Shown in pieces: positions 38,015-54,833 of a stretch of DNA of 64,000 bases. Source of the stretch: Spirochaetia bacterium. GTDB taxonomy: Bacteria > Spirochaetota > Spirochaetia > CAKZLE01. Within the stretch, counting starts at the first letter, position 1. Each line of letters begins with the position of its first letter. The translations under genes and the position numbers were made by a program. A model generated the notes under the pieces. The model searched no databases, had not been told where the DNA came from, and saw only the letters and a list, made by a program, of their open reading frames with translations. The DNA is taken from NCBI GenBank assembly GCA_963677595.1, contig OY782041.1, positions 1,280,001-1,344,000 on the forward strand, given 5' to 3'.

Positions 38015-39850
38015 CTACAGGTACCGCTGTCTCCTGCTGAGCAGCATGGCGTCCTTCAGCTCGGTGGCTGACCCTGCTGCCATCCATTTCTCAGGGAAAT
38101 CCTCCTCCCCTACCAGGGAGGCGATCGCGGCGATCGTCTTGAGGTGGAGGACCCTCGCATCCTTGCTGCCCCCGAGGAAGAAGACGGCCTTGACCGACGG
38201 ATTGTCAGGGTGGAAATCCACCCCTTCGGAACACCTCACCACATGCATGAACGCATCCTCATCCCCGTCGGTGATGATGTGCGGGATGGCCAGGAAGTCG
38301 GAGATCGCCGTGTTCATGGACTCATGACGCTCGGTATACCGCCTGATGACTTCACCCTCCTCCATCCCGATCTCTTTTGCGATGTCAGGCGCGACAGTCC
38401 TCAGCAGGCTGGAGAAGTCACTCTTCCCCTGTATATCATAGACCTTCGCGTCCCGGACGAGGCAGTCGAATCGGTCCTGCTGGATCTCGTCCCTCGTGAT
38501 GATGATGTCCCTGAGCTCGGTCTCGAGCAGGTCCTCGGTCAGCCGGGTGTCGGTGATCCGCTTGAGCAGGTGCAGCAGGGCGAAATCGCCGGTTCCCCGC
38601 TTCCTCCCATAGAAGAGGTAGAGACAGAGGCAGGCGAATATGAAGAGGAGGCTGATCTCGATCGCCTGTGCACCGAGGTCGATGATGAAGTAGCCGAAGA
38701 GGATGATGCTCGCTATCTGCAGCCAGGGGTAGAGCGGGGCTTTGAAGCTCGGCCGGTAGTTGGACAGGTTGCTCTCCCGCAGGATGATGATCGCCAGGTT
38801 CGTAAGGACATAGCTCGTCAGGATCACCGTCGAGGCTGCCTTGACCAGGACATCGAGCGGGAGCAGCAGAGCAAGGAAGATCATGACCGAGGTTATGGAG
38901 AGCGCGATGACCGGGGACTCCTTCTTCCGGCTCACGCGTGAGAAGAAGGGCGGCAGCAGGTGGTCCCTGCTGAGGGCGAGCGGATACCTGCTGGAGGACA
39001 TGAGCCCTGCATTAGCAGTCGTGATGAAGGCCAGCATCGAGGCGGCGATGATGACGCCGTACCCGATGTTTCCCATGAGGATCCTGGCTGAATCGGCTAC
39101 CGGGGTAAGGGAGCCTGCGAACTCCCCGGGAGGGAGGACCCCGGTCAGGACGATGACGATCAGCCCGTAGAAGAGGGTCACGATCCCGATGGAGAGGATC
39201 ATCCCGAGCGGAATGTTCCTCTTGGGGTTGATCACCTCCTCCGAGATGTTCGCGACCTTCAGCAGCCCCCCGAAGGAGATGAAGATGAACCCTGAGGTGA
39301 TGATGATCGAGTTCACCCCCTTCCCGAGGAAGTCATCGAAGTGGGAGGGTTCGATCCGCGGGATGCCGATAATGATATAGAGCAGGAGCAGCAGCAGAAG
39401 GCCTGCCACCATGATGATCTGGAAGGTCGTCGCCTCCTTCACACCCGCCACATTGATGACGAGGAAGAGGAGGCAGAGGATACCGGCCGAGAGGATCGGC
39501 GATATGCCGAAGAGCACGTAGATGATCTCCGAGATACCGAAGATGGCGAACGCGCTCTTCAGGGCCAGCGCGAACCAGCCGAGGAACCCTGAGATGGTCC
39601 CGAAGAGGGACCCGAATGTACGGTTAATGAAGTAGTAGTCGCCCCCGGCTTTCGGCATGGCAGTCGAGAGCTCGATGACGCTGAAGATCCCCATCAGGGC
39701 CAGCAGCCCGCCGAGGATGTAGGATATGAAGACTGCAGGCCCGGCTTTTGAGAATGCCAGGCCGGGCAGGACGAAGATACCGGAGCTGATCATAGCCCCG
39801 GTCGCGATACTGAATACTCCAGCAAGGTTTATGTTCTTCTTCAGACTCAC
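38015..39850 (-). CDS. APC family amino acid permease fused to a PTS EIIA-like domain
   Basis: GAMISSGIF.LPG, ELSTAMP.AGG.Y, many TM segments; C-terminal ER...NTAI...AIPH EIIA motif. Confidence 0.85.
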   Translation of the reverse strand: MSLKKNINLAGVFSIATGAMISSGIFVLPGLAFSKAGPAVFISYILGGLLALMGIFSVIELSTAMPKAGGDYYFINRTFGSLFGTISGFLGWFALALKSAFAIFGISEIIYVLFGISPILSAGILCLLFLVINVAGVKEATTFQIIMVAGLLLLLLLYIIIGIPRIEPSHFDDFLGKGVNSIIITSGFIFISFGGLLKVANISEEVINPKRNIPLGMILSIGIVTLFYGLIVIVLTGVLPPGEFAGSLTPVADSARILMGNIGYGVIIAASMLAFITTANAGLMSSSRYPLALSRDHLLPPFFSRVSRKKESPVIALSITSVMIFLALLLPLDVLVKAASTVILTSYVLTNLAIIILRESNLSNYRPSFKAPLYPWLQIASIILFGYFIIDLGAQAIEISLLFIFACLCLYLFYGRKRGTGDFALLHLLKRITDTRLTEDLLETELRDIIITRDEIQQDRFDCLVRDAKVYDIQGKSDFSSLLRTVAPDIAKEIGMEEGEVIRRYTERHESMNTAISDFLAIPHIITDGDEDAFMHVVRCSEGVDFHPDNPSVKAVFFLGGSKDARVLHLKTIAAIASLVGEEDFPEKWMAAGSATELKDAMLLSRRQRYL

Positions 39851-39921: not shown

Positions 39922-40494
39922 TCATGTATCGAGAACAGCATGTGCCTGGTCTATCCCCGACACCGGAGCATGGGCATGCACCCTATCCTTCACCACGAGG
40001 TTCGTGACGTCCCCGGTGAAGTTCCGGTGGAAGAGGATGTCATGGCCGAGGCAGAGACCGATAGTCACGGCCAGGTCGACACCCTCGGCCTTCAGCTGGG
40101 CAGCCTGGTTGACCGGGTTGCAGGAGACGCCGGGCAGTTCGCTCTCCTTGTTGATATCTTTCTGGGCGACCCCACCGACCGTGCAGGATACCCCCGTGAC
40201 CGGGACTCCTGCAGCCTTGAAGAGCTTCAGGACCTTCCCGGCAAGAGGCTCCATGCCGTAGCAGTAGGCAAGCCCGACCTTCTTGTAGCCCATCGTCTTC
40301 GAGAACTCGATGAGCTCCTCGATCCGGGAGAGCTCGCCAGCCCTCCCGCCGTCGACGAGCTTCGCCGCATGCTGCACGACCTGCTGGTGCCCCTCCTCAT
40401 GGTAGATACCGGTATGGGTATCTATGTCGAAGGATTCGGCCCCGCAGGAGAGGGCACTCCTGCAGGATTTCCTCTTGCAGCTTATGCAGTTCAT
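39922..40494 (-). CDS. DUF1847 family Cys-rich putative metal-binding protein
   Basis: RIEELIEF...GY.K.GLA.C.G, CNP..QA, GLC.GHD, LVVKDRV. Confidence 0.85.
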   Translation of the reverse strand: MNCISCKRKSCRSALSCGAESFDIDTHTGIYHEEGHQQVVQHAAKLVDGGRAGELSRIEELIEFSKTMGYKKVGLAYCYGMEPLAGKVLKLFKAAGVPVTGVSCTVGGVAQKDINKESELPGVSCNPVNQAAQLKAEGVDLAVTIGLCLGHDILFHRNFTGDVTNLVVKDRVHAHAPVSGIDQAHAVLDT

Positions 40495-41774
40495 TAGAGC
40501 TGCTTCGAGATGGTGATCGCAGCGATGGTACCGTCAGCGACTGCAGTCGTGATCTGCCGGTAGGCCTTCGACTTCACATCGCCGACCGCATAGACGCCGT
40601 CAAGGTTGGTCTTCATCTGGTCGTCAGCCGCGAGGTAGCCCCACTGGTCCAGCTCGAGGTTGTCGCCGAGGTCGTCGATGTTCGGGAGGAACCCGACGAA
40701 GACGAAGATACCAGTGGTCCGCAGTTCCTTGAGCTCGCCGCTCTTCAGGTCCTCGACCACGACGCCCATGTCCATGGTGCCGTACTTCTTGAACTCCCTC
40801 GGTTCATGCTCGAACATGATCTCGATCTTCGGGTTATCGAAGGCCTCCTTCTGGGCAGCCTTGTTGGCCTGGAGCTCGGCGAACTGGTGTACGATAGTCA
40901 CCTTCTTGGCGAACCTGGTGATGAACAGGGACTCCTCGATAGCGGAGTTACCGCCGCCGATCACGACGACTTCTTTGTCCTCGAAGTATTTCGCGTCACA
41001 GGTCGCACAGTAGGAGATACCGTTCCCCCGGTATTCCAACTCCCCGGGGATGCCGAGCGGTCTCGGCCGTGAACCGGTAGCGATGACGATGTGCTTTGCC
41101 TTGATGGTCTCGACCCCGTCGATGACGACCTGCTTCTTCTCAAGGTCGATATCGGTCACGTCGACTGCGACACGGTATTCCACCCCGTTCGCCTTTGCCT
41201 GCTCGCTCATGTAATGGGAGAGCATGAATCCCGGCTGGGGATCCACGAAGCCAGGGTAGTTCGATACCTGGTGGGTCGTCGATACATAGCCTCCCGGGAG
41301 TGCCGGGTCGACCAGGATGACCTTCGCATGTGCCTGGGCAAGGTAGATCCCTGCGGTAAGCCCTGCAGGTCCGCCGCCGAGGACGATGACGTCACGCTCG
41401 GTCTCGACCGGCTCGATCTTTGCCTTCACCTCTTCGACCTCTTCACTGGTAAGCAGTGCATCGAGGTTCTCCATGAGGGCACCACGCTTGATCCCGCCAG
41501 AGAGCTTGTCACCCACCTGCTTCCCCTTCTCATAGAAGAGGACGGTCGGTGAACCGGTCACGTCCAGTTCGGCGGCCAGTTCCCGGTTACCCTGCCGGAA
41601 GATCTTCACGAAGGAGATCTTCTCCCCGTAGAGGTAGCTCAATGCCTCGTATTTCGAAGCCAGTGCCTCACAGGGAGGGCACTCGGTCGAATAGAAATCC
41701 ACTACAACCCGTTCTTTCTGCAGCACCTCTGAATCGAATTCTGCTGCGGTTATCTCTTTGATCTTACCAGCCAT
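40494..41774 (-). CDS. Thioredoxin domain fused to a thioredoxin-reductase-like flavoprotein
   Basis: N-terminal VVDFYSTECPPC Trx fold, then GGGPAGL, YCATCD, GGGNSA, GVYAVGD, QITTAVADG. Confidence 0.9.
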   Translation of the reverse strand: MAGKIKEITAAEFDSEVLQKERVVVDFYSTECPPCEALASKYEALSYLYGEKISFVKIFRQGNRELAAELDVTGSPTVLFYEKGKQVGDKLSGGIKRGALMENLDALLTSEEVEEVKAKIEPVETERDVIVLGGGPAGLTAGIYLAQAHAKVILVDPALPGGYVSTTHQVSNYPGFVDPQPGFMLSHYMSEQAKANGVEYRVAVDVTDIDLEKKQVVIDGVETIKAKHIVIATGSRPRPLGIPGELEYRGNGISYCATCDAKYFEDKEVVVIGGGNSAIEESLFITRFAKKVTIVHQFAELQANKAAQKEAFDNPKIEIMFEHEPREFKKYGTMDMGVVVEDLKSGELKELRTTGIFVFVGFLPNIDDLGDNLELDQWGYLAADDQMKTNLDGVYAVGDVKSKAYRQITTAVADGTIAAITISKQL

Positions 41775-41809: not shown

Positions 41810-43126
41810 TTATTCCTGTCCCAGCTGCTGGAAGTAGAGGGACAGCCCCATACCGATCAGCTGGTTCACCGGCCTGCAGTCTGCAGACTGGATACGTCCT
41901 GTACTGTTCTTCGCCACCGAACCGCAGCCGCCCCCGCAGGCTAACTGCATCGAGCAGTCCTTACATTCCGGGATCGTGGTGACATCACGCTCCTCCCACT
42001 GCTCGATTATCTCGTCCTTCCTCGTCACGGTCGGGTAGAATGTCCCGAGAACCTCATCATCCTTCCCGACGGTCGCCGTGCAGGAGTAGATCCTCCCGCT
42101 GTAGTCGAAGGCCCACTCCGTCTTGCAGGCAGGGCAGGAATCGAACAGCGGGTCAGGCATCTCGCCATGCTCGAAGAGGAACTTCGAGATCGAGTATGCA
42201 GGGGTATGGAATTCGAGGAATTCCGGGTTCTCCCTGATCATCGCATAGAGGTCCTCGTAGAGGCTGACCCGGTCATAGAGCTTGGACTGGTCGGACTGGC
42301 AGCTGTGAAGCTCATAGTTCCGCCCGAGCTGGGTCTTGAAGAGCGGGCTTGCGGCCCATCCCTTATCTATGGCAAGGTGTGCAAGTTCGATGAGGTGGGG
42401 GAAGTTCTCCCGGTCGACGACTGCCCGCAGGTTGACCGGCAGGCCGGCTGCCAGGGCTGCGTCGATCCCCTCGACGATCTCTGCGAAGGTACCTGACCCG
42501 CCGCGGAGCATCCTCCGCTTGTCATGGGCAGCTTCCGGCCCGTCGAGGGTCACCTGGAGTTCCTTGATGATCGCCGTCTTCAGGAGCGGTACATAACTCG
42601 TGAGGGTGTATCCGTTCGTGACGATCGCGATCCCGAGCTTCCTCTCCGTCGCCTTCTCCAAGAGGTACGCGATATTCTTCTTCGTCGCGTCATTGGGCAG
42701 GAGCGGCTCCCCGCCGAAGATCGTGATATACTTGTCCCTGCCGGCGAACTCCCGGTCGATGTAGTCGAAGAAGGCATCGATGACTTCCGGCTGGTAGTTC
42801 AGGTCCTGGTGGGTGTATTCCGCCTGGTAGCAGTAGGAGCAGGCGAAGTTGCAGGCATAGGTCGGTACATAGAAGATCTGCACCTCATCGGTATCGCGGT
42901 TGTCGATGAAATCGAGGTATTCGCTCCGGTAGAGCCTCTGCTCCTCTAAAGGGTCCACGAGATACCCCTTCTCGATGAGCTCCTCCTCGTTGAGGTACTC
43001 GCCCCTCTTGAAGGCCTCGGCATGCGCCGCCTCCATGATGTCCGCCTGCTTCGTCAGGGGATTTATGATGTAATACTCTTCAGAGTCCTTGAGCTGCCCG
43101 AAGAGCAGGTACTTAGATTTCTCCAT
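41810..43126 (-). CDS. Radical SAM/SPASM-domain peptide maturase
   Basis: CNFACSYC, FGGEPLL, TNG, QVTLDG...HDKRR; C-terminal CPAC-x14-C...CKDC-x5-C-GGG-C-x15-C; N-terminal extension ending LIEKGYLV (RRE-like). Confidence 0.93.
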   Translation of the reverse strand: MEKSKYLLFGQLKDSEEYYIINPLTKQADIMEAAHAEAFKRGEYLNEEELIEKGYLVDPLEEQRLYRSEYLDFIDNRDTDEVQIFYVPTYACNFACSYCYQAEYTHQDLNYQPEVIDAFFDYIDREFAGRDKYITIFGGEPLLPNDATKKNIAYLLEKATERKLGIAIVTNGYTLTSYVPLLKTAIIKELQVTLDGPEAAHDKRRMLRGGSGTFAEIVEGIDAALAAGLPVNLRAVVDRENFPHLIELAHLAIDKGWAASPLFKTQLGRNYELHSCQSDQSKLYDRVSLYEDLYAMIRENPEFLEFHTPAYSISKFLFEHGEMPDPLFDSCPACKTEWAFDYSGRIYSCTATVGKDDEVLGTFYPTVTRKDEIIEQWEERDVTTIPECKDCSMQLACGGGCGSVAKNSTGRIQSADCRPVNQLIGMGLSLYFQQLGQE

Positions 43127-43153: not shown

Positions 43154-43183
43154 GCAGGCAGCCTGCAGCTGCAGGCTGCCTGC
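43154..43183. repeat. Perfect 30-bp palindrome (RNA stem-loop) between the precursor and maturase genes
   Basis: GCAGGCAGCCTGCAG-CTGCAGGCTGCCTGC. Confidence 0.9.
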
Positions 43184-43190
43184 CGGATAA

Positions 43191-43286
43191 CTAGTCGTGG
43201 CAGCCTGCGACGACTTTCGAGTTCTTAGCACAGCACTGTGCAACAGCTTTCTGTTCAGCAGGCCGTTTCTTGAGAAGTGATTTCAT
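43191..43286 (-). CDS. Putative RiPP precursor peptide, 31 aa: MKSLLKKRPAEQKAVAQCCAKNSKVVAGCHD (not in the ORF track)
   Basis: Translated by hand; AGGAGG RBS 6 nt before ATG; lies directly upstream of the rSAM/SPASM gene; Lys-rich N-terminus and three Cys in the C-terminal half. Confidence 0.85.
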   Translation of the reverse strand: MKSLLKKRPAEQKAVAQCCAKNSKVVAGCHD

Positions 43287-43332
43287 TGCTTTCCTCCTGT
43301 CCACTAAGATTTCTCTTTATACTCATCCGGGG

Positions 43333-43968
43333 TCATTTGACCCCGAGGATGGTCCAACTCGCTACCTCGATCGCGCCCTTCGGATAGGGATCGCTCTCCT
43401 CGAGGATCTGTACTTCAGAGAACCCTGCCTTCAGCAGCTGCTCACTGTATACGTCCCTGGTCACCGACCCGGCCCAGCATTCCGCGACAGCCGCGGGATC
43501 GTTCCGGTACTCATCGGGCACCGGCTGCAGGGAGTAGATGTCGCTAACGGTGAACCGCCCGCCGGGTTTGAGTACCCGGTAGACCTCGTTCCAGACGTTC
43601 TGCTTGTCTGATGCATGGTTGATCGTGCAGTTCGAGATGAGCAAGTCAACGGTATCGGACTCGAGCGGGAGCTTCTCCAGGTCGGATTTGAGGAAGTCAA
43701 CATTCCCGACCCCAAGCCGTTCAGCCTGCCGTGCAGCCTTTGCCAGCATGCCGTCCGAGATATCGATCCCGTAGACGAACCCGTCTGTACCCACCTCGTC
43801 GGCAAGTCGCAGGACATCGGTCCCCCGACCGCTGCCGAGGTCGACGCAGGTCTCGCCTGTCTGTGCATTGCTGTGGTTGATCGCCCCGCCGCATGAGAGG
43901 CAGCAGCTCGTCTCCGCAAGTTCTGAATACCGGATGTTTATTGCAGTATTCGCCTGTGTGTTCACCAT
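43333..43968 (-). CDS. ArsM-like (arsenite methyltransferase family) class I SAM methyltransferase
   Basis: VDLGSGRG.D motif I; Cys motifs LSCG, ISNCTIN and ECWAG align by eye with ArsM GCG, SNCVIN and ECxxG; RVLKPGGRF.VSD. Confidence 0.75.
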   Translation of the reverse strand: MVNTQANTAINIRYSELAETSCCLSCGGAINHSNAQTGETCVDLGSGRGTDVLRLADEVGTDGFVYGIDISDGMLAKAARQAERLGVGNVDFLKSDLEKLPLESDTVDLLISNCTINHASDKQNVWNEVYRVLKPGGRFTVSDIYSLQPVPDEYRNDPAAVAECWAGSVTRDVYSEQLLKAGFSEVQILEESDPYPKGAIEVASWTILGVK

Positions 43969-43980
43969 ACTATACGTCTC

Positions 43981-44382
43981 CTACATGACTCTCAGGAGAA
44001 GGGACAGCCCCTCCCTGATCTTGTTCTGTTCTTCAGGGGTAAGCCCCTCGCTCAGCCTCCGGTCGCAGGCATCCTTCTCGTTCTGCAGGTCGGTAAAGCA
44101 CTGCTGCCCGGCACCGGTCAGGGAGAGCTTGACCGCCCTGCGGTCATTCCTGTTCGGCACGACGGTAAGCAGACCCCGTTCCCGCAGGCTGTTGACGACC
44201 CTGCTGCCCCTCGAGATCGAGAGACTCATGGCTTCAGCGATCTCCTTGAGGGAGGCCCCGCCATGGGAGGCGATCATCCAGATGCAGCTCACCTCACCGG
44301 GGGTGAGGTTGTGGATCCTGCCGATCTCCTCCACGAAGGTACATTTGTTCTTCAATTCTAAAATCGTATCTATCATCACCAT
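43981..44382 (-). CDS. MarR family transcriptional regulator
   Basis: LKEIA..M.LS.SR.SRVV..L...GL...DRR...L.LT..G wHTH; four Cys. Confidence 0.9.
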   Translation of the reverse strand: MVMIDTILELKNKCTFVEEIGRIHNLTPGEVSCIWMIASHGGASLKEIAEAMSLSISRGSRVVNSLRERGLLTVVPNRNDRRAVKLSLTGAGQQCFTDLQNEKDACDRRLSEGLTPEEQNKIREGLSLLLRVM

Positions 44383-44392
44383 TTCTCTTTAA

Positions 44393-44448
44393 TTGCTATT
44401 AGCAACTATTGCTTATGGCAATATACTATTTCCTTATCGATATGTCAA
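44393..44448 (-). promoter_or_regulatory. Promoter of the marR-led operon with two tandem palindromic operators
   Basis: TTGACA(44448-43)-N17-TATATT(44425-20); TTGC-N5-GCAA at 44393-44405 and 44409-44421. Confidence 0.75.
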
Positions 44449-51783: not shown

Positions 51784-52596
51784 CTACTGCCCATCCTTCC
51801 TGAACCGCCAGCCCCGGTGCTTCCTGGGAAAACGACGGCCTTCCCTGCCGATCTCCGGTCCGCAGTCGTAGTGGTCCCTCCCATGGCGCGGCCCGCGTGG
51901 ATGCCCATGTCTATGGGATATCTCATGGTACCGGTCTGCCGTCAGCCGCCAGACATAGATGGAGGAGGCAACCTCCTCATCGATGGCTATCGTGGAGCCG
52001 TCGCACTCGATGACGATCGACGGGGAGACCTGGTGCACCTTCAGGACCGTACCCGGCCTGATCTGCAGATTGTCAAGGAGATGCAGCTGGTGGTCGTTGT
52101 CCGCATTAACGGCGACCACCCTGCCCGACTCCTCGGGCTGGAGTTCCAGCAGCGAGACAGAGGGGCTCCTGATCGTCTTCTGCTCTGCCCTGCAGCAGGC
52201 TCCCTCCGGGATGGGCAGCCCGTCAGGGCATCTCCGGGGATGCCCGAGGAGTGTGCAGATCCCGTCGATGAGGTCCGTATCGAGGATGTGCTCGAACTCG
52301 CAGGCAGCGATCTCGTAATCCTCGATCCGCAGGACATCATAGAGCAGCCGTTCGGCGAGGCGATGGGCACGGATCAGGAGCCTCCCCCGTTCGTTCCCCT
52401 TCTCCGTGTAGGTGATCTCCTGGGTATCGGCATCGATGACAGCCAGATCCTGGGAGATAAGCTGGTCAGCAACCGACTGGTCATACTCCTCGTTGAAGTA
52501 CTCCTTCAGCAGCGGGACGGTACAGGTCCCCTTCTCCGTGAGGATCCAGACTGCCTCGATATACTCATCAACGATCTTAGTCTCTTTCGTAGCCAT
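51784..52596 (-). CDS. DtxR/MntR family metal-dependent regulator with C-terminal FeoA domain
   Basis: EY.E, R.HRLAE, ACEFEH, LGHP..CP.G.PIP; FeoA-like L..L.I.PG. Confidence 0.88.
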   Translation of the reverse strand: MATKETKIVDEYIEAVWILTEKGTCTVPLLKEYFNEEYDQSVADQLISQDLAVIDADTQEITYTEKGNERGRLLIRAHRLAERLLYDVLRIEDYEIAACEFEHILDTDLIDGICTLLGHPRRCPDGLPIPEGACCRAEQKTIRSPSVSLLELQPEESGRVVAVNADNDHQLHLLDNLQIRPGTVLKVHQVSPSIVIECDGSTIAIDEEVASSIYVWRLTADRYHEISHRHGHPRGPRHGRDHYDCGPEIGREGRRFPRKHRGWRFRKDGQ

Positions 52597-52611
52597 AGAT
52601 GATCACCCCTC

Positions 52612-54570
52612 CTAGAATATTCCCTCTATCTGTGTCAACAGCAGGTTCAGCACCCCTGCCAATGCGATGGTCGATATATTGATCCCGATGAGCATCAGGA
52701 TGCCTGCCTTGGCACCGGCTTCCTTGAACATCGCCACGATGTTGGCGAAACAGGGGACGAACATCGTCGTGACGACGACTGCGATGATGCTCTGGACCGG
52801 GGAGAGCATCCCGGAATCGGACAGCCGCAGGATCAGGCCTGCCGCTGCCTCCTCCCGTGCGATCAGGAGGATCAGCGCCTCCACCATCTGGATCGGCAGC
52901 CCGAGCCAACCGACGACCAGGGGCTCCAGGAAGGTCTTCAAGATATCGAGGAGGCCGATGAGGTCGATGAAGAAGATGATCGCCGAGGCGAGGATGAATA
53001 CCGGGATCGCCTCCTTCAGGAACCACAGCAGGCGGTAGCCGGTCTTCTTGAGGACGGCATCAACCATCGGGATCCTGAACGGGGGGAGCTCCTGGATGAA
53101 GAACTGGTTCCCGTCACTGGTGATGACCCGATTGAGGATCTTGCCGGCAAGCACCTCCACGAGGACGAGGAAGACCAGGGCGATGATGAAGGGCAGGACC
53201 CCTGCCCTCCCGAGGATCGCGATGTTCAGCGCGAGCTGGGCCGAACAGGGGATCGCGAAGGCGATCAGGTAGATCGCTATCAGCCGCTCCTTGCGCGACT
53301 TCAGGCTCCGCGTCGTCAGGGTAGCCATCGTCTTGCAGCCGAACCCCAGGATGATCGGCATGACTGCCCTCCCTGAGAGCCCCACCTTGGTGAACGACCG
53401 TCTCAGCAGGACCGAGAGGTTGGGGAGGTACCCGATGTCCTCGAGGAACCCGAAGAGGAAGAAGAAGACCGACAGGATGGGGAGGATCGTGCAGATCGCG
53501 TTGAAGAGCCCGAGGGTGAGGATACCGAAATCCCCGATGAGGAAGTCATGGAGGATCGGTATCGTGATGACCGAGTCCAGGGCATGGACGATCGGTTCGG
53601 TGATGTAGGTCTCCATGAGGCCGGCAAGCCAGCCGGCGAACACCACGACACCGAGATAGGAGAGTGCTATGAACACCAGCAGGAAGCCGAACCCGATCAC
53701 CGGGTGGCGGCTGTAGTAGCCCAGTCTCGAAGCAAGGCCGGTATCCTTCTGTGCGCTCCTGCTGGTGACCACCTTGTCATAGAGGTCATCGGTCCACTTG
53801 CCGAGCTGGCGGTTCATGATGGTGTTCACATCACCCTTGAAGGTGGCGAGCATGGCTGATACGGAGGAAGACACCTCCTTCGCGGTACCCTCAGGGACCT
53901 CGAGGCCGTCTTTCTCACCGAACTCGATCCTCTCGAGTTCCACATCCCCCGACAACGCCATCGAGACGACATGCTCCTTGTACGGCATCGTCTCAGGGAG
54001 TACGGCAGAGAGTCTCTTGGAGAGCCTTGTGATCTCATCGGTGAAGGGGCTCCCCGAACGGGAGACACGTGCCAGGGTGACCGCCTCGCGGAGGTCATAC
54101 ATCCCCGAACCCACATGGGCTGCCGTTTCGATGACCGGGATACCAAGCAGGTTTGACAGCCGGTTCGTATCGATCCTTACCCCCCGCTTCGCCGTCTCGT
54201 CGATGACGTTCAGGCTGAGCACCATGGGGAGTCCGTAGCCAAGCAGCTCTGCCGTCAGCTTCAGCGACTGTCTCAGCCGGTTGGCGTCGATGCACTGCAG
54301 GATGAGGTCCGGCTGCTCATCGACCATCGCCCGACGGAAGATCAGGGCTTCGGAGGAGTCGGCATGCAGGGTATTGATCCCGGGCGTGTCGATCAGCTCC
54401 CAGGTGGTGTTCCTGAAGCTGAAGGTCGCCGCCTCTTCCTTCAGGGTGGTCATGGGATAGTTCGCCACGACCCCGTAGGAGCCGGTCAGGTTGTTGAATA
54501 TCTGGGTCTTGCCTGAATTGGCAAGCCCTGCAAGCATGATCTTCTTCGTCTCATGAGTCTGCTTCGTCAT
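52612..54570 (-). CDS. feoB: Ferrous iron transporter B
   Basis: G.ANSGKT, VANYP..T, DTPG, LEDIGYLP, GFGC, IPCSAQ, ELPP.R.P, PC; start moved to ATG 54570. Confidence 0.93.
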   Translation of the reverse strand: MTKQTHETKKIMLAGLANSGKTQIFNNLTGSYGVVANYPMTTLKEEAATFSFRNTTWELIDTPGINTLHADSSEALIFRRAMVDEQPDLILQCIDANRLRQSLKLTAELLGYGLPMVLSLNVIDETAKRGVRIDTNRLSNLLGIPVIETAAHVGSGMYDLREAVTLARVSRSGSPFTDEITRLSKRLSAVLPETMPYKEHVVSMALSGDVELERIEFGEKDGLEVPEGTAKEVSSSVSAMLATFKGDVNTIMNRQLGKWTDDLYDKVVTSRSAQKDTGLASRLGYYSRHPVIGFGFLLVFIALSYLGVVVFAGWLAGLMETYITEPIVHALDSVITIPILHDFLIGDFGILTLGLFNAICTILPILSVFFFLFGFLEDIGYLPNLSVLLRRSFTKVGLSGRAVMPIILGFGCKTMATLTTRSLKSRKERLIAIYLIAFAIPCSAQLALNIAILGRAGVLPFIIALVFLVLVEVLAGKILNRVITSDGNQFFIQELPPFRIPMVDAVLKKTGYRLLWFLKEAIPVFILASAIIFFIDLIGLLDILKTFLEPLVVGWLGLPIQMVEALILLIAREEAAAGLILRLSDSGMLSPVQSIIAVVVTTMFVPCFANIVAMFKEAGAKAGILMLIGINISTIALAGVLNLLLTQIEGIF

Positions 54571-54634
54571 ACTTGAACAGTAATTGTTCTTGCCCCGATA
54601 GTCAACGTTTCGCGACCCGTTGGTGATAAATAAA

Positions 54635-54648
54635 TTAGAAATACCTAA
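54635..54648. promoter_or_regulatory. Possible DtxR/MntR-type box upstream of feoB
   Basis: TTAG-AAATAC-CTAA imperfect palindrome in an AT-rich intergenic region. Confidence 0.35.
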
Positions 54649-54833
54649 CAATCTGAAGCTGTATGAACATCTTGCCGTGATTTTATCGATTAAAGTAAAA
54701 TCATACACCTTGAAAGGTTGCAGTATAATCGATATAGTTAGCCTGAGCGATTTTGCGTCCAAGACCGATCCCCGGGCAACCCCGAAACTGCCTCCGGTAT
54801 GAGGACGCTATTATATGTCGTAAGGAGCACACA

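Follow-up and report, generated by a model that had tools for sequence, protein, structure and literature searches.

The window analysed here is a stretch of 64,000 nucleotides from a Spirochaetia bacterium. On its minus strand, at positions 43191-43286, lies an open reading frame (ORF) of 31 codons, MKSLLKKRPAEQKAVAQCCAKNSKVVAGCHD, which begins with the ATG at 43286-43284, ends with the TAG at 43193-43191, and was assigned as a precursor peptide gene from its sequence and its conservation in relatives. The Shine-Dalgarno sequence AGGAGG is located at 43298-43293, and the spacer between it and the ATG is 6 nt. The first-pass annotation, whose interval 43191..43298 comprises the ORF and its ribosome binding site, had described an unannotated 31-aa ORF with a perfect AGGAGG 6 nt upstream, filling the gap between a methyltransferase gene and a radical SAM gene. 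Both statements hold in the window: the ORF reads exactly as claimed and is flanked by the methyltransferase stop at 43333 and the radical SAM start at 43126. The ORF list also contains a 37-aa form of the peptide starting from an upstream GTG, but the relatives align at the ATG start instead.

The surrounding genes and signals described below are all on the minus strand. A sigma-70-like promoter, TTGACA-17-TATATT, was found by pattern match at 44420-44448, with 11 of 12 matches to the consensus. The window sequence shows two tandem inverted repeats, TTGCTA-N-TAGCAA, at 44393-44421; by eye, the same repeat is also present in most marR-bearing loci, and it is likely that the repeats are the operator to which the MarR protein would bind. 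The gene at 43981-44382 encodes this MarR-family regulator (Pfam MarR), which carries two conserved Cys, in helix 1 and helix 5; both are kept in 28 aligned sequences, one sequence being truncated before the first Cys. Such a two-Cys MarR would turn the operon on under thiol-reactive stress. Just past the peptide stop there is a 13-bp perfect hairpin (43154-43183), and the 60 nt after the stop have a folding energy of -33.1 kcal/mol (z -5.6). Of 92 loci whose peptide-maturase gap measures 40-400 nt, 58 have a z value below -3, the hairpin sequences being unrelated to one another. The hairpin would hold the peptide in excess of the maturase. About two dozen Bacteroidota-type loci have 2-12 nt from the peptide stop to the maturase start, which leaves no room for a hairpin. 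Downstream of the maturase gene are a gene for a 426-aa protein in which a thioredoxin (CPPC) is fused to a thioredoxin reductase (Trx::TrxR; 40494-41774; NCBIfam and Pfam matches) and a gene for a Cys-rich accessory protein of the DUF1847 family (39922-40494; Pfam), found in 14 of the first 117 loci collected. Directly downstream of the operon, at 38015-39850, an APC-family amino-acid permease is fused to a PTS EIIA domain; it is not a recurring neighbour. Elsewhere in the window, at 51784-54762, a DtxR-like regulator with a FeoA-like tail (plus strand) faces an ORF for a FeoB-like iron transporter (minus strand), both recognised from translation only.

By similarity of the radical SAM maturase, 128 non-duplicate loci were gathered, this window and some near-identical pairs included. 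Seven came from GTDB contigs; the others were the best 30 matches from a search of Spirochaetota genomes (44 of 401 genomes matched), the best 80 of 555 metagenome matches, and 11 weaker matches from 20 regions, the remaining 9 regions being wider copies that were excluded from the counts. The conserved small ORF that the first-pass annotation expected upstream of homologous radical SAM genes was found in 122 of the 128 loci, with a near-invariant CC...GCHD core; the methyltransferase gene is present in 110 and the Trx::TrxR fusion in 120. The missing genes are mostly due to contig ends. Three of the 6 loci without the peptide have less than 90 nt of upstream DNA and the other three have a thioredoxin-like gene directly upstream. 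Real exceptions are 5 loci with more than 1.5 kb upstream and no methyltransferase gene, and 3 loci with more than 4 kb downstream and no fusion. One locus (L087) has the peptide and the maturase, with no methyltransferase gene in 3.7 kb upstream and no fusion in 4.4 kb downstream. The gene order is marR, short arsM-like methyltransferase, peptide, radical SAM/SPASM maturase and Trx::TrxR, marR being limited to Spirochaetota-type loci, and the carriers of this cassette belong to Spirochaetota, Bacteroidota and Bacillota. Peptide, methyltransferase and fusion are kept together in all six loci whose maturase is only 35-39% identical. These six loci (L118-L123) form a distant sub-family with 39-aa peptides that have a second CC in the linker, and with methyltransferases lacking their CC; the start of the peptide gene overlaps the stop codon of the methyltransferase gene, and four of the six have a Cys-rich gene of the DUF5714 family.

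A profile search recovered 1,359 relatives of the peptide (clusters at 90% identity) from 1,474 candidates, and 145 matches came from scanning all 50%-identity representatives. Among the 120 profile-search relatives listed, every named one is called "hypothetical". In the collected loci, a Shine-Dalgarno-like motif precedes the peptide gene in 63 of 120 relatives, and the remainder have A/T-rich starts. Carboxydocella thermautotrophica (CFE_1003) is a named cultured source of the peptide, and Marispirochaeta aestuarii and Spirochaeta isovalerica are named cultured sources of the maturase. No relative of the peptide was found in viral contigs (0 of 602 candidates), and plasmids gave only radical SAM proteins of 28% identity (4 records). 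A 243-aa repeat protein (P0323) was discarded as a chance match, and P0345 was taken as a run-on. The 14 longer matches include three full run-ons (P0388, P0390 and P0392) and one fragment in which the methyltransferase runs in frame into the peptide; the Met of the peptide is retained in all of them, so loss of a stop codon may be all that happened.

The peptide core is under selection at the protein level. Over 113 distinct DNA sequences of the core, codon positions 1, 2 and 3 have mean entropies of 0.27, 0.42 and 1.35 bits, and across 10 conserved core columns there are 31,038 synonymous versus 442 non-synonymous pairwise codon differences. All three stop codons are in use after the core Asp (TAA 62, TGA 34, TAG 17). 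A chance or untranslated ORF is extremely improbable in view of this codon-level selection, the conserved start and stop, the 1,359 relatives, and, in the six distant loci, the overlap between peptide start and methyltransferase stop. Sequence conservation confirms the ORF as a real gene of the precursor type, unannotated until now.

The family has a three-part build: a conserved start of six residues with the consensus M[KR]S[LIV][IVT]xK, a linker of about 6-30 residues of free sequence, and a fixed, nearly invariant C-terminal core, AQCCxKxSxxxxGCHD-stop. In the peptide of the window the core comprises residues 16-31 (AQCCAKNSKVVAGCHD; 43194-43241), with the CC-x9-C spacing fixed in the family alignment, and the leader comprises residues 1-6 (MKSLLK; 43269-43286), which from conservation and a complex model is predicted to bind the N-terminal domain of the maturase. 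The first-pass annotation had described a Lys-rich N-terminus followed by a CC-x9-C-H-D core. Core and leader are indeed conserved, but the leader is confined to residues 1-6 and the Lys-rich stretch belongs to the linker of variable length. Since the pattern used in the locus search itself demanded CC and GCH, the invariance of Cys, Gly and His is better judged from the profile search. In 143 short profile matches, each Cys of the CC is kept in 140, the Lys, the Gly and the third Cys in 142 each, and the His in 141, while the terminal residue is Asp in 139 and Asn in 3. The residue five after the first core Cys is Ser in 126 of these matches, Ala in 11 and Thr in 4, so small size outweighs the hydroxyl group there.

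The peptide, with three Cys and not six, does not fit the SCIFF pattern, and it gave no match in NCBIfam or Pfam at E 0.01, in agreement with the first-pass annotation, which had recognised no matching precursor. When the limit was relaxed to E 5, 4 of 34 members matched the model of the ArsD-related VcpD (best E 0.097), which was treated as an effect of composition. Of 139 peptides, 27 have a further CC in their linker. Loci whose methyltransferase is without its CC have this linker CC in 10 of 12 cases, versus 4 of 79; a compensation between the two proteins is not significant, with only 2 independent pairs on well-supported branches, and the methyltransferase tree suggests few events, so that it stands as no more than a lead. 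Most full-length ArsMs in the collection (L138, L142-L153) have N-terminal SCC-type repeats, which resemble the extra CC segments of some peptide linkers.

The maturase (41810-43126, minus strand) is a radical SAM/SPASM protein of 438 aa with an N-terminal domain of the RRE type, a CX3CX2C motif and seven SPASM Cys. The three radical SAM Cys and the seven SPASM Cys are invariant in 92 of 92 sequences; seven SPASM Cys are also reported for QhpD, CteB and Tte1186 in the accessible text of PMC10352776. CteB is the best PDB match both by profile (E 6e-19) and by fold (E 7e-16). In the predicted structure (pLDDT 79), residues 7-78 form three strands followed by helices, that is, a leader-binding domain of the RRE type. 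The maturase reaches no NCBIfam cut-off among the 25 best matches listed; its best scores are with the CefB, PapB, TIGR04463, geopeptide and Clo7bot maturase models, and it stays below the cut-offs of the curated families of the PapB, CefB, RumMC and QhpD types. At residues 262-276 the family has an FKTxLGRNYEL motif of its own, and in 86 of 92 sequences, though not in the six distant ones, H-x-C comes next; this region is possibly an extra ligand or substrate contact.

As the first-pass annotation had proposed, the peptide was modelled with the maturase. The predicted complex scored 0.78 versus 0.00 for the best of three controls, passing a mark that is reached by 116 of 157 solved complexes and by 2 of 215 mismatches. 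Contact agreement between runs was at least 33%, and the peptide pLDDT was 46-48. In the model, peptide residues 1-6 and 8 contact maturase residues 18-20, 26-31 and others, residues 1-6 lying along the strand 26-31 of the N-terminal domain; the core was not placed in the active site of the maturase in this model. Binding of the leader along a strand of the N-terminal domain is the known mode of the CteB-type enzyme class, and because of this the score may stem from a resemblance to the solved structure of CteB with its leader. We hold it highly probable, and much surer than any chemistry, that the peptide is the partner of the neighbouring maturase. Thioether cross-linking is the best-supported chemistry and, by analogy, likely, as indicated by the CteB-like maturase and its seven invariant SPASM Cys.

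A thioether gives no explanation for the invariant Lys, His and terminal Asp. An alternative that takes them into account is a peptide-derived cofactor or metal site, made by a non-thioether link or a cleavage at Lys, His or the terminal Asp, with the methyltransferase as a tailoring or client enzyme; mycofactocin and PQQ are the comparison cases. Near-invariance over three phyla, the fixed spacing and the invariant Lys, His and Asp at a free C-terminus are in keeping with such a product, as is the finding that no exporter recurs. A peptidase that could free a small product does not recur either. By both HMM and fold, the closest maturases belong to the thioether-forming or the Cys-peptide type, and the model for the mycofactocin maturase has a far lower score, 71.7 versus 131.4 bits. 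We consider a cofactor of this kind unlikely.

The methyltransferase gene (43333-43968, minus strand) encodes a short ArsM-like SAM methyltransferase of 211 aa, recognised by NCBIfam and PDB matches, which lacks the usual N- and C-terminal parts of ArsM. Its best NCBIfam match is the arsenite methyltransferase NF008823, at 194.6 bits and hence below the cut-off of 263, and arsenic methyltransferases are the top 5 of its 8 PDB matches. C26, C114 and C164 align with C72, C174 and C224 of CmArsM, and their equivalents are kept in 92, 92 and 91 of 93 methyltransferases, the misses being gaps. The position of CmArsM C44 is missing from the short protein, so that three of the four ArsM Cys are kept. 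A CC pair (C22-C23) three residues before the C72 equivalent is present in 80 of the 93 and, lying near C26, could stand in for the fourth Cys of the C44 type. According to the accessible part of PMC6138428, this Cys set together with Trx recycling separates arsenic methyltransferases from O-, N-, C- and S-methyltransferases; the need of the cycle for Trx recycling explains the private Trx::TrxR of the cassette. The host genome also has a separate full-length arsM (356 bits; G000:C1:2663374-2664141), and in the tree 13 full-length ArsMs are grouped apart from 32 short ones with a support of 98, the outgroups being too distant to root it. The short copy therefore looks dedicated. No ars genes were recognised among the neighbours of the host full-length arsM, and acr3 lies elsewhere (C1:1414590).

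The gene neighbourhood lends little direct support to a role in arsenic binding. An adjacent arsR-arsM-acr3-arsC operon was found in only 1 of 128 loci (L127:2165-4944); in this locus the peptide gene is about 2.3 kb from the maturase gene and on the opposite strand. The cassette regulator is MarR and not ArsR, and the acr3 of the host is about 90 kb from the cassette. By a hand count of Spirochaetota genomes, acr3 is present in 38 of 44 cassette genomes versus 155 of 357 others, but within families there is no enrichment (4 of 5 versus 10 of 12, and 5 of 7 versus 3 of 4). Full-length arsM is present in 10 of 44 cassette genomes versus 19 of 357 others, 7 of the 10 being of one genus. The neighbour survey covered 57 selected ORFs, and 29 loci had flanks of 1.5 kb or less. 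In it, the sulfur-handling neighbours DsrE, DsrC/TusE-like protein, rhodanese, sulfur transporter and OsmC recur and are commoner than ars genes, although any one sulfur-trafficking gene is confined to a few loci. Among the ORF families that loci have in common, neither an exporter nor a protease recurs. In Bacteroidota-type loci (such as the metagenome loci L043, L045, L084 and L103), DUF6132 or thioredoxin-like genes are often inserted in the cassette, and loci of this type adjoin NifB/NifX, DUF134, DUF302, OsmC, DsrE and rhodanese genes. With one ars operon in 128 loci, sulfur-handling neighbours, a MarR regulator and no acr3 enrichment within families, we infer the link to arsenic from enzyme anatomy alone.

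The sulfur neighbours point no less to sulfur handling, and one alternative is sulfur or selenium chemistry: methylation by the ArsM-like enzyme would fall on a thiol of the peptide, or on a persulfide or selenide bound to the enzyme's own Cys, with recycling by Trx::TrxR, and a thioether or methylthio group would come from the radical enzyme. A two-Cys MarR would fit general thiol stress, and human AS3MT is reported, in the accessible part of PMC9013690, to methylate its own Cys. The scattering of each sulfur neighbour over a few loci weakens this proposal, as does the kept Cys set, which is the arsenic-methyltransferase signature in the available text of PMC6138428; moreover, none of the loci scanned has a selenopeptide form, that is, a stop or in-frame TGA at the Cys positions. 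Such chemistry appears rather unlikely to us.

The reading that we favour, tentatively and at somewhat less than an even chance, is that of an intracellular thioether peptide that acts on trivalent arsenic together with Trx::TrxR and the ArsM-like methyltransferase. The leader (residues 1-6) would pair with the third strand of the N-terminal domain of the maturase, as modelled. By analogy with CteB- and PapB-type enzymes, a 5'-deoxyadenosyl radical would then abstract a hydrogen from a core residue, a candidate being the small Ser, Ala or Thr located four to five residues past the CC. A core Cys, at the open iron site left by the seven SPASM Cys, would make the C-S bond, and the core would become rigid. 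The predicted product has at least one Cys-to-carbon thioether and probably stays in the cell. In the methyltransferase, by analogy with ArsM, C114 and C164 would bind As(III) for methylation from SAM, C26 with C22/C23 would reduce the methylated product, and Trx::TrxR would re-reduce the resulting disulfide. In the most speculative step, the remaining peptide thiols with His and Asp might carry arsenic to or from the methyltransferase. Coordination of As(III) by the peptide thiols is plausible with ArsL as a precedent; because a thioether Cys cannot bind arsenic, the thioether and As(III) uses of the three thiols compete.

Another proposal leads from the same parts to a carbon-arsenic bond: methylarsenite produced by the methyltransferase and bound to the peptide Cys would meet a radical made by the maturase and give an arsenic-bridged peptide, or the peptide would be a free-standing equivalent of the arsenic-binding tail of ArsL. 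In the accessible texts, ArsL has a CCxxC motif whose three Cys all take part in arsenic binding (bioRxiv 10.64898/2026.04.29.721666), and the radical SAM enzymes ArsL and ArsS form C-As bonds (bioRxiv 10.64898/2026.04.29.721666; PMC12159101). A leader followed by a flexible linker of free length would tether a thiol cluster near the active site. ArsL and ArsS, however, are not leader-binding SPASM enzymes, whereas the maturase here has the Cys set of CteB; the spacing is CC-x9-C and not CCxxC, and the ars context is weak. Either form is quite unlikely, and we give the same low probability to the specific claim that the product is the first ribosomal peptide to contain a carbon-arsenic bond. 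In that case, methylarsenite from the short ArsM and Trx::TrxR would be bound by the peptide Cys, and the SPASM enzyme would couple it to a carbon radical on the peptide.

Among the known systems, CteB/CteA (SCIFF, thermocellin) and PapB (PDB 5WGG, 5WHY; TIGR03974; NF047865) have in common with the cassette a maturase with an N-terminal leader-binding domain, a radical SAM core and a seven-Cys SPASM domain, and a short conserved Cys precursor encoded directly upstream of it. CteB is only 17% identical to the maturase in the fold alignment, however, and the maturase scores 88.4 and 126 bits with TIGR03974 (SCIFF) and NF047865 (PapB), whose cut-offs are 425 and 340; the SCIFF core has six Cys versus three here, and the present cassette adds the ArsM-like enzyme and Trx::TrxR. 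The CefB, TIGR04463, geopeptide and Clo7bot systems give the best NCBIfam scores (101-131 bits) and have Cys-rich small precursors, but the maturase is far below their cut-offs (400-600) and none of their precursor models recognises the peptide. ArsM/AS3MT (NF008823; CmArsM PDB 4FR0, 4KW7) provides the top sequence matches, the C72/C174/C224 equivalents and Trx in the published cycle; its members have 260-380 aa versus about 210 aa here and fall in a separate clade, and the cassette methyltransferase is not in ars operons. The arsinothricin (ArsL-ArsM) and arsenosugar (ArsS) pathways likewise use radical SAM enzymes, with ArsL followed by ArsM and a three-Cys arsenic motif with a vicinal CC, but for them no ribosomal precursor or SPASM/leader-binding maturase is described, and the SAM fragment itself is transferred. 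The cassette would work like a CteB-type system, yet it lies outside SCIFF and every curated maturase family tested.

Gene clusters proposed as "AsRiPP" in non-journal abstracts on Roseimarinus and Microcystis reportedly place arsM next to genes for a precursor peptide and for an enzyme that modifies it, and could, we presume, be the cassette described here; the term had no match among the papers listed in our open-literature search. In the open literature, most subscription journals, theses and bioRxiv supplements lying outside the coverage, no description of the cassette or the peptide was found, and the core motif strings matched only unrelated papers. The motif is absent from the main text of PMC10352776 and from the readable supplements of PMC7470986, and the accessible parts of PMC12608789 and PMC13188914 do not describe the cassette. 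It is apparently undescribed in print.

The peptide represents a large unnamed family, and its four-gene cassette, whose parts are all small and soluble, joins RiPP radical chemistry, an enzyme of the arsenic-methyltransferase type and a thiol-recycling system of its own. Short "arsM" matches in metagenomes may accordingly not be detoxification genes. If the carbon-arsenic peptide were true, it would mean a widespread unrecognised organoarsenic pathway, represented by more than 1,300 sequence clusters from three phyla, in lineages of the anaerobe type. Whichever reading proves right, the result would be new, whether a peptide that carries arsenic or is bonded to it, a further class of substrates for ArsM-type enzymes, or an additional cofactor derived from a peptide.
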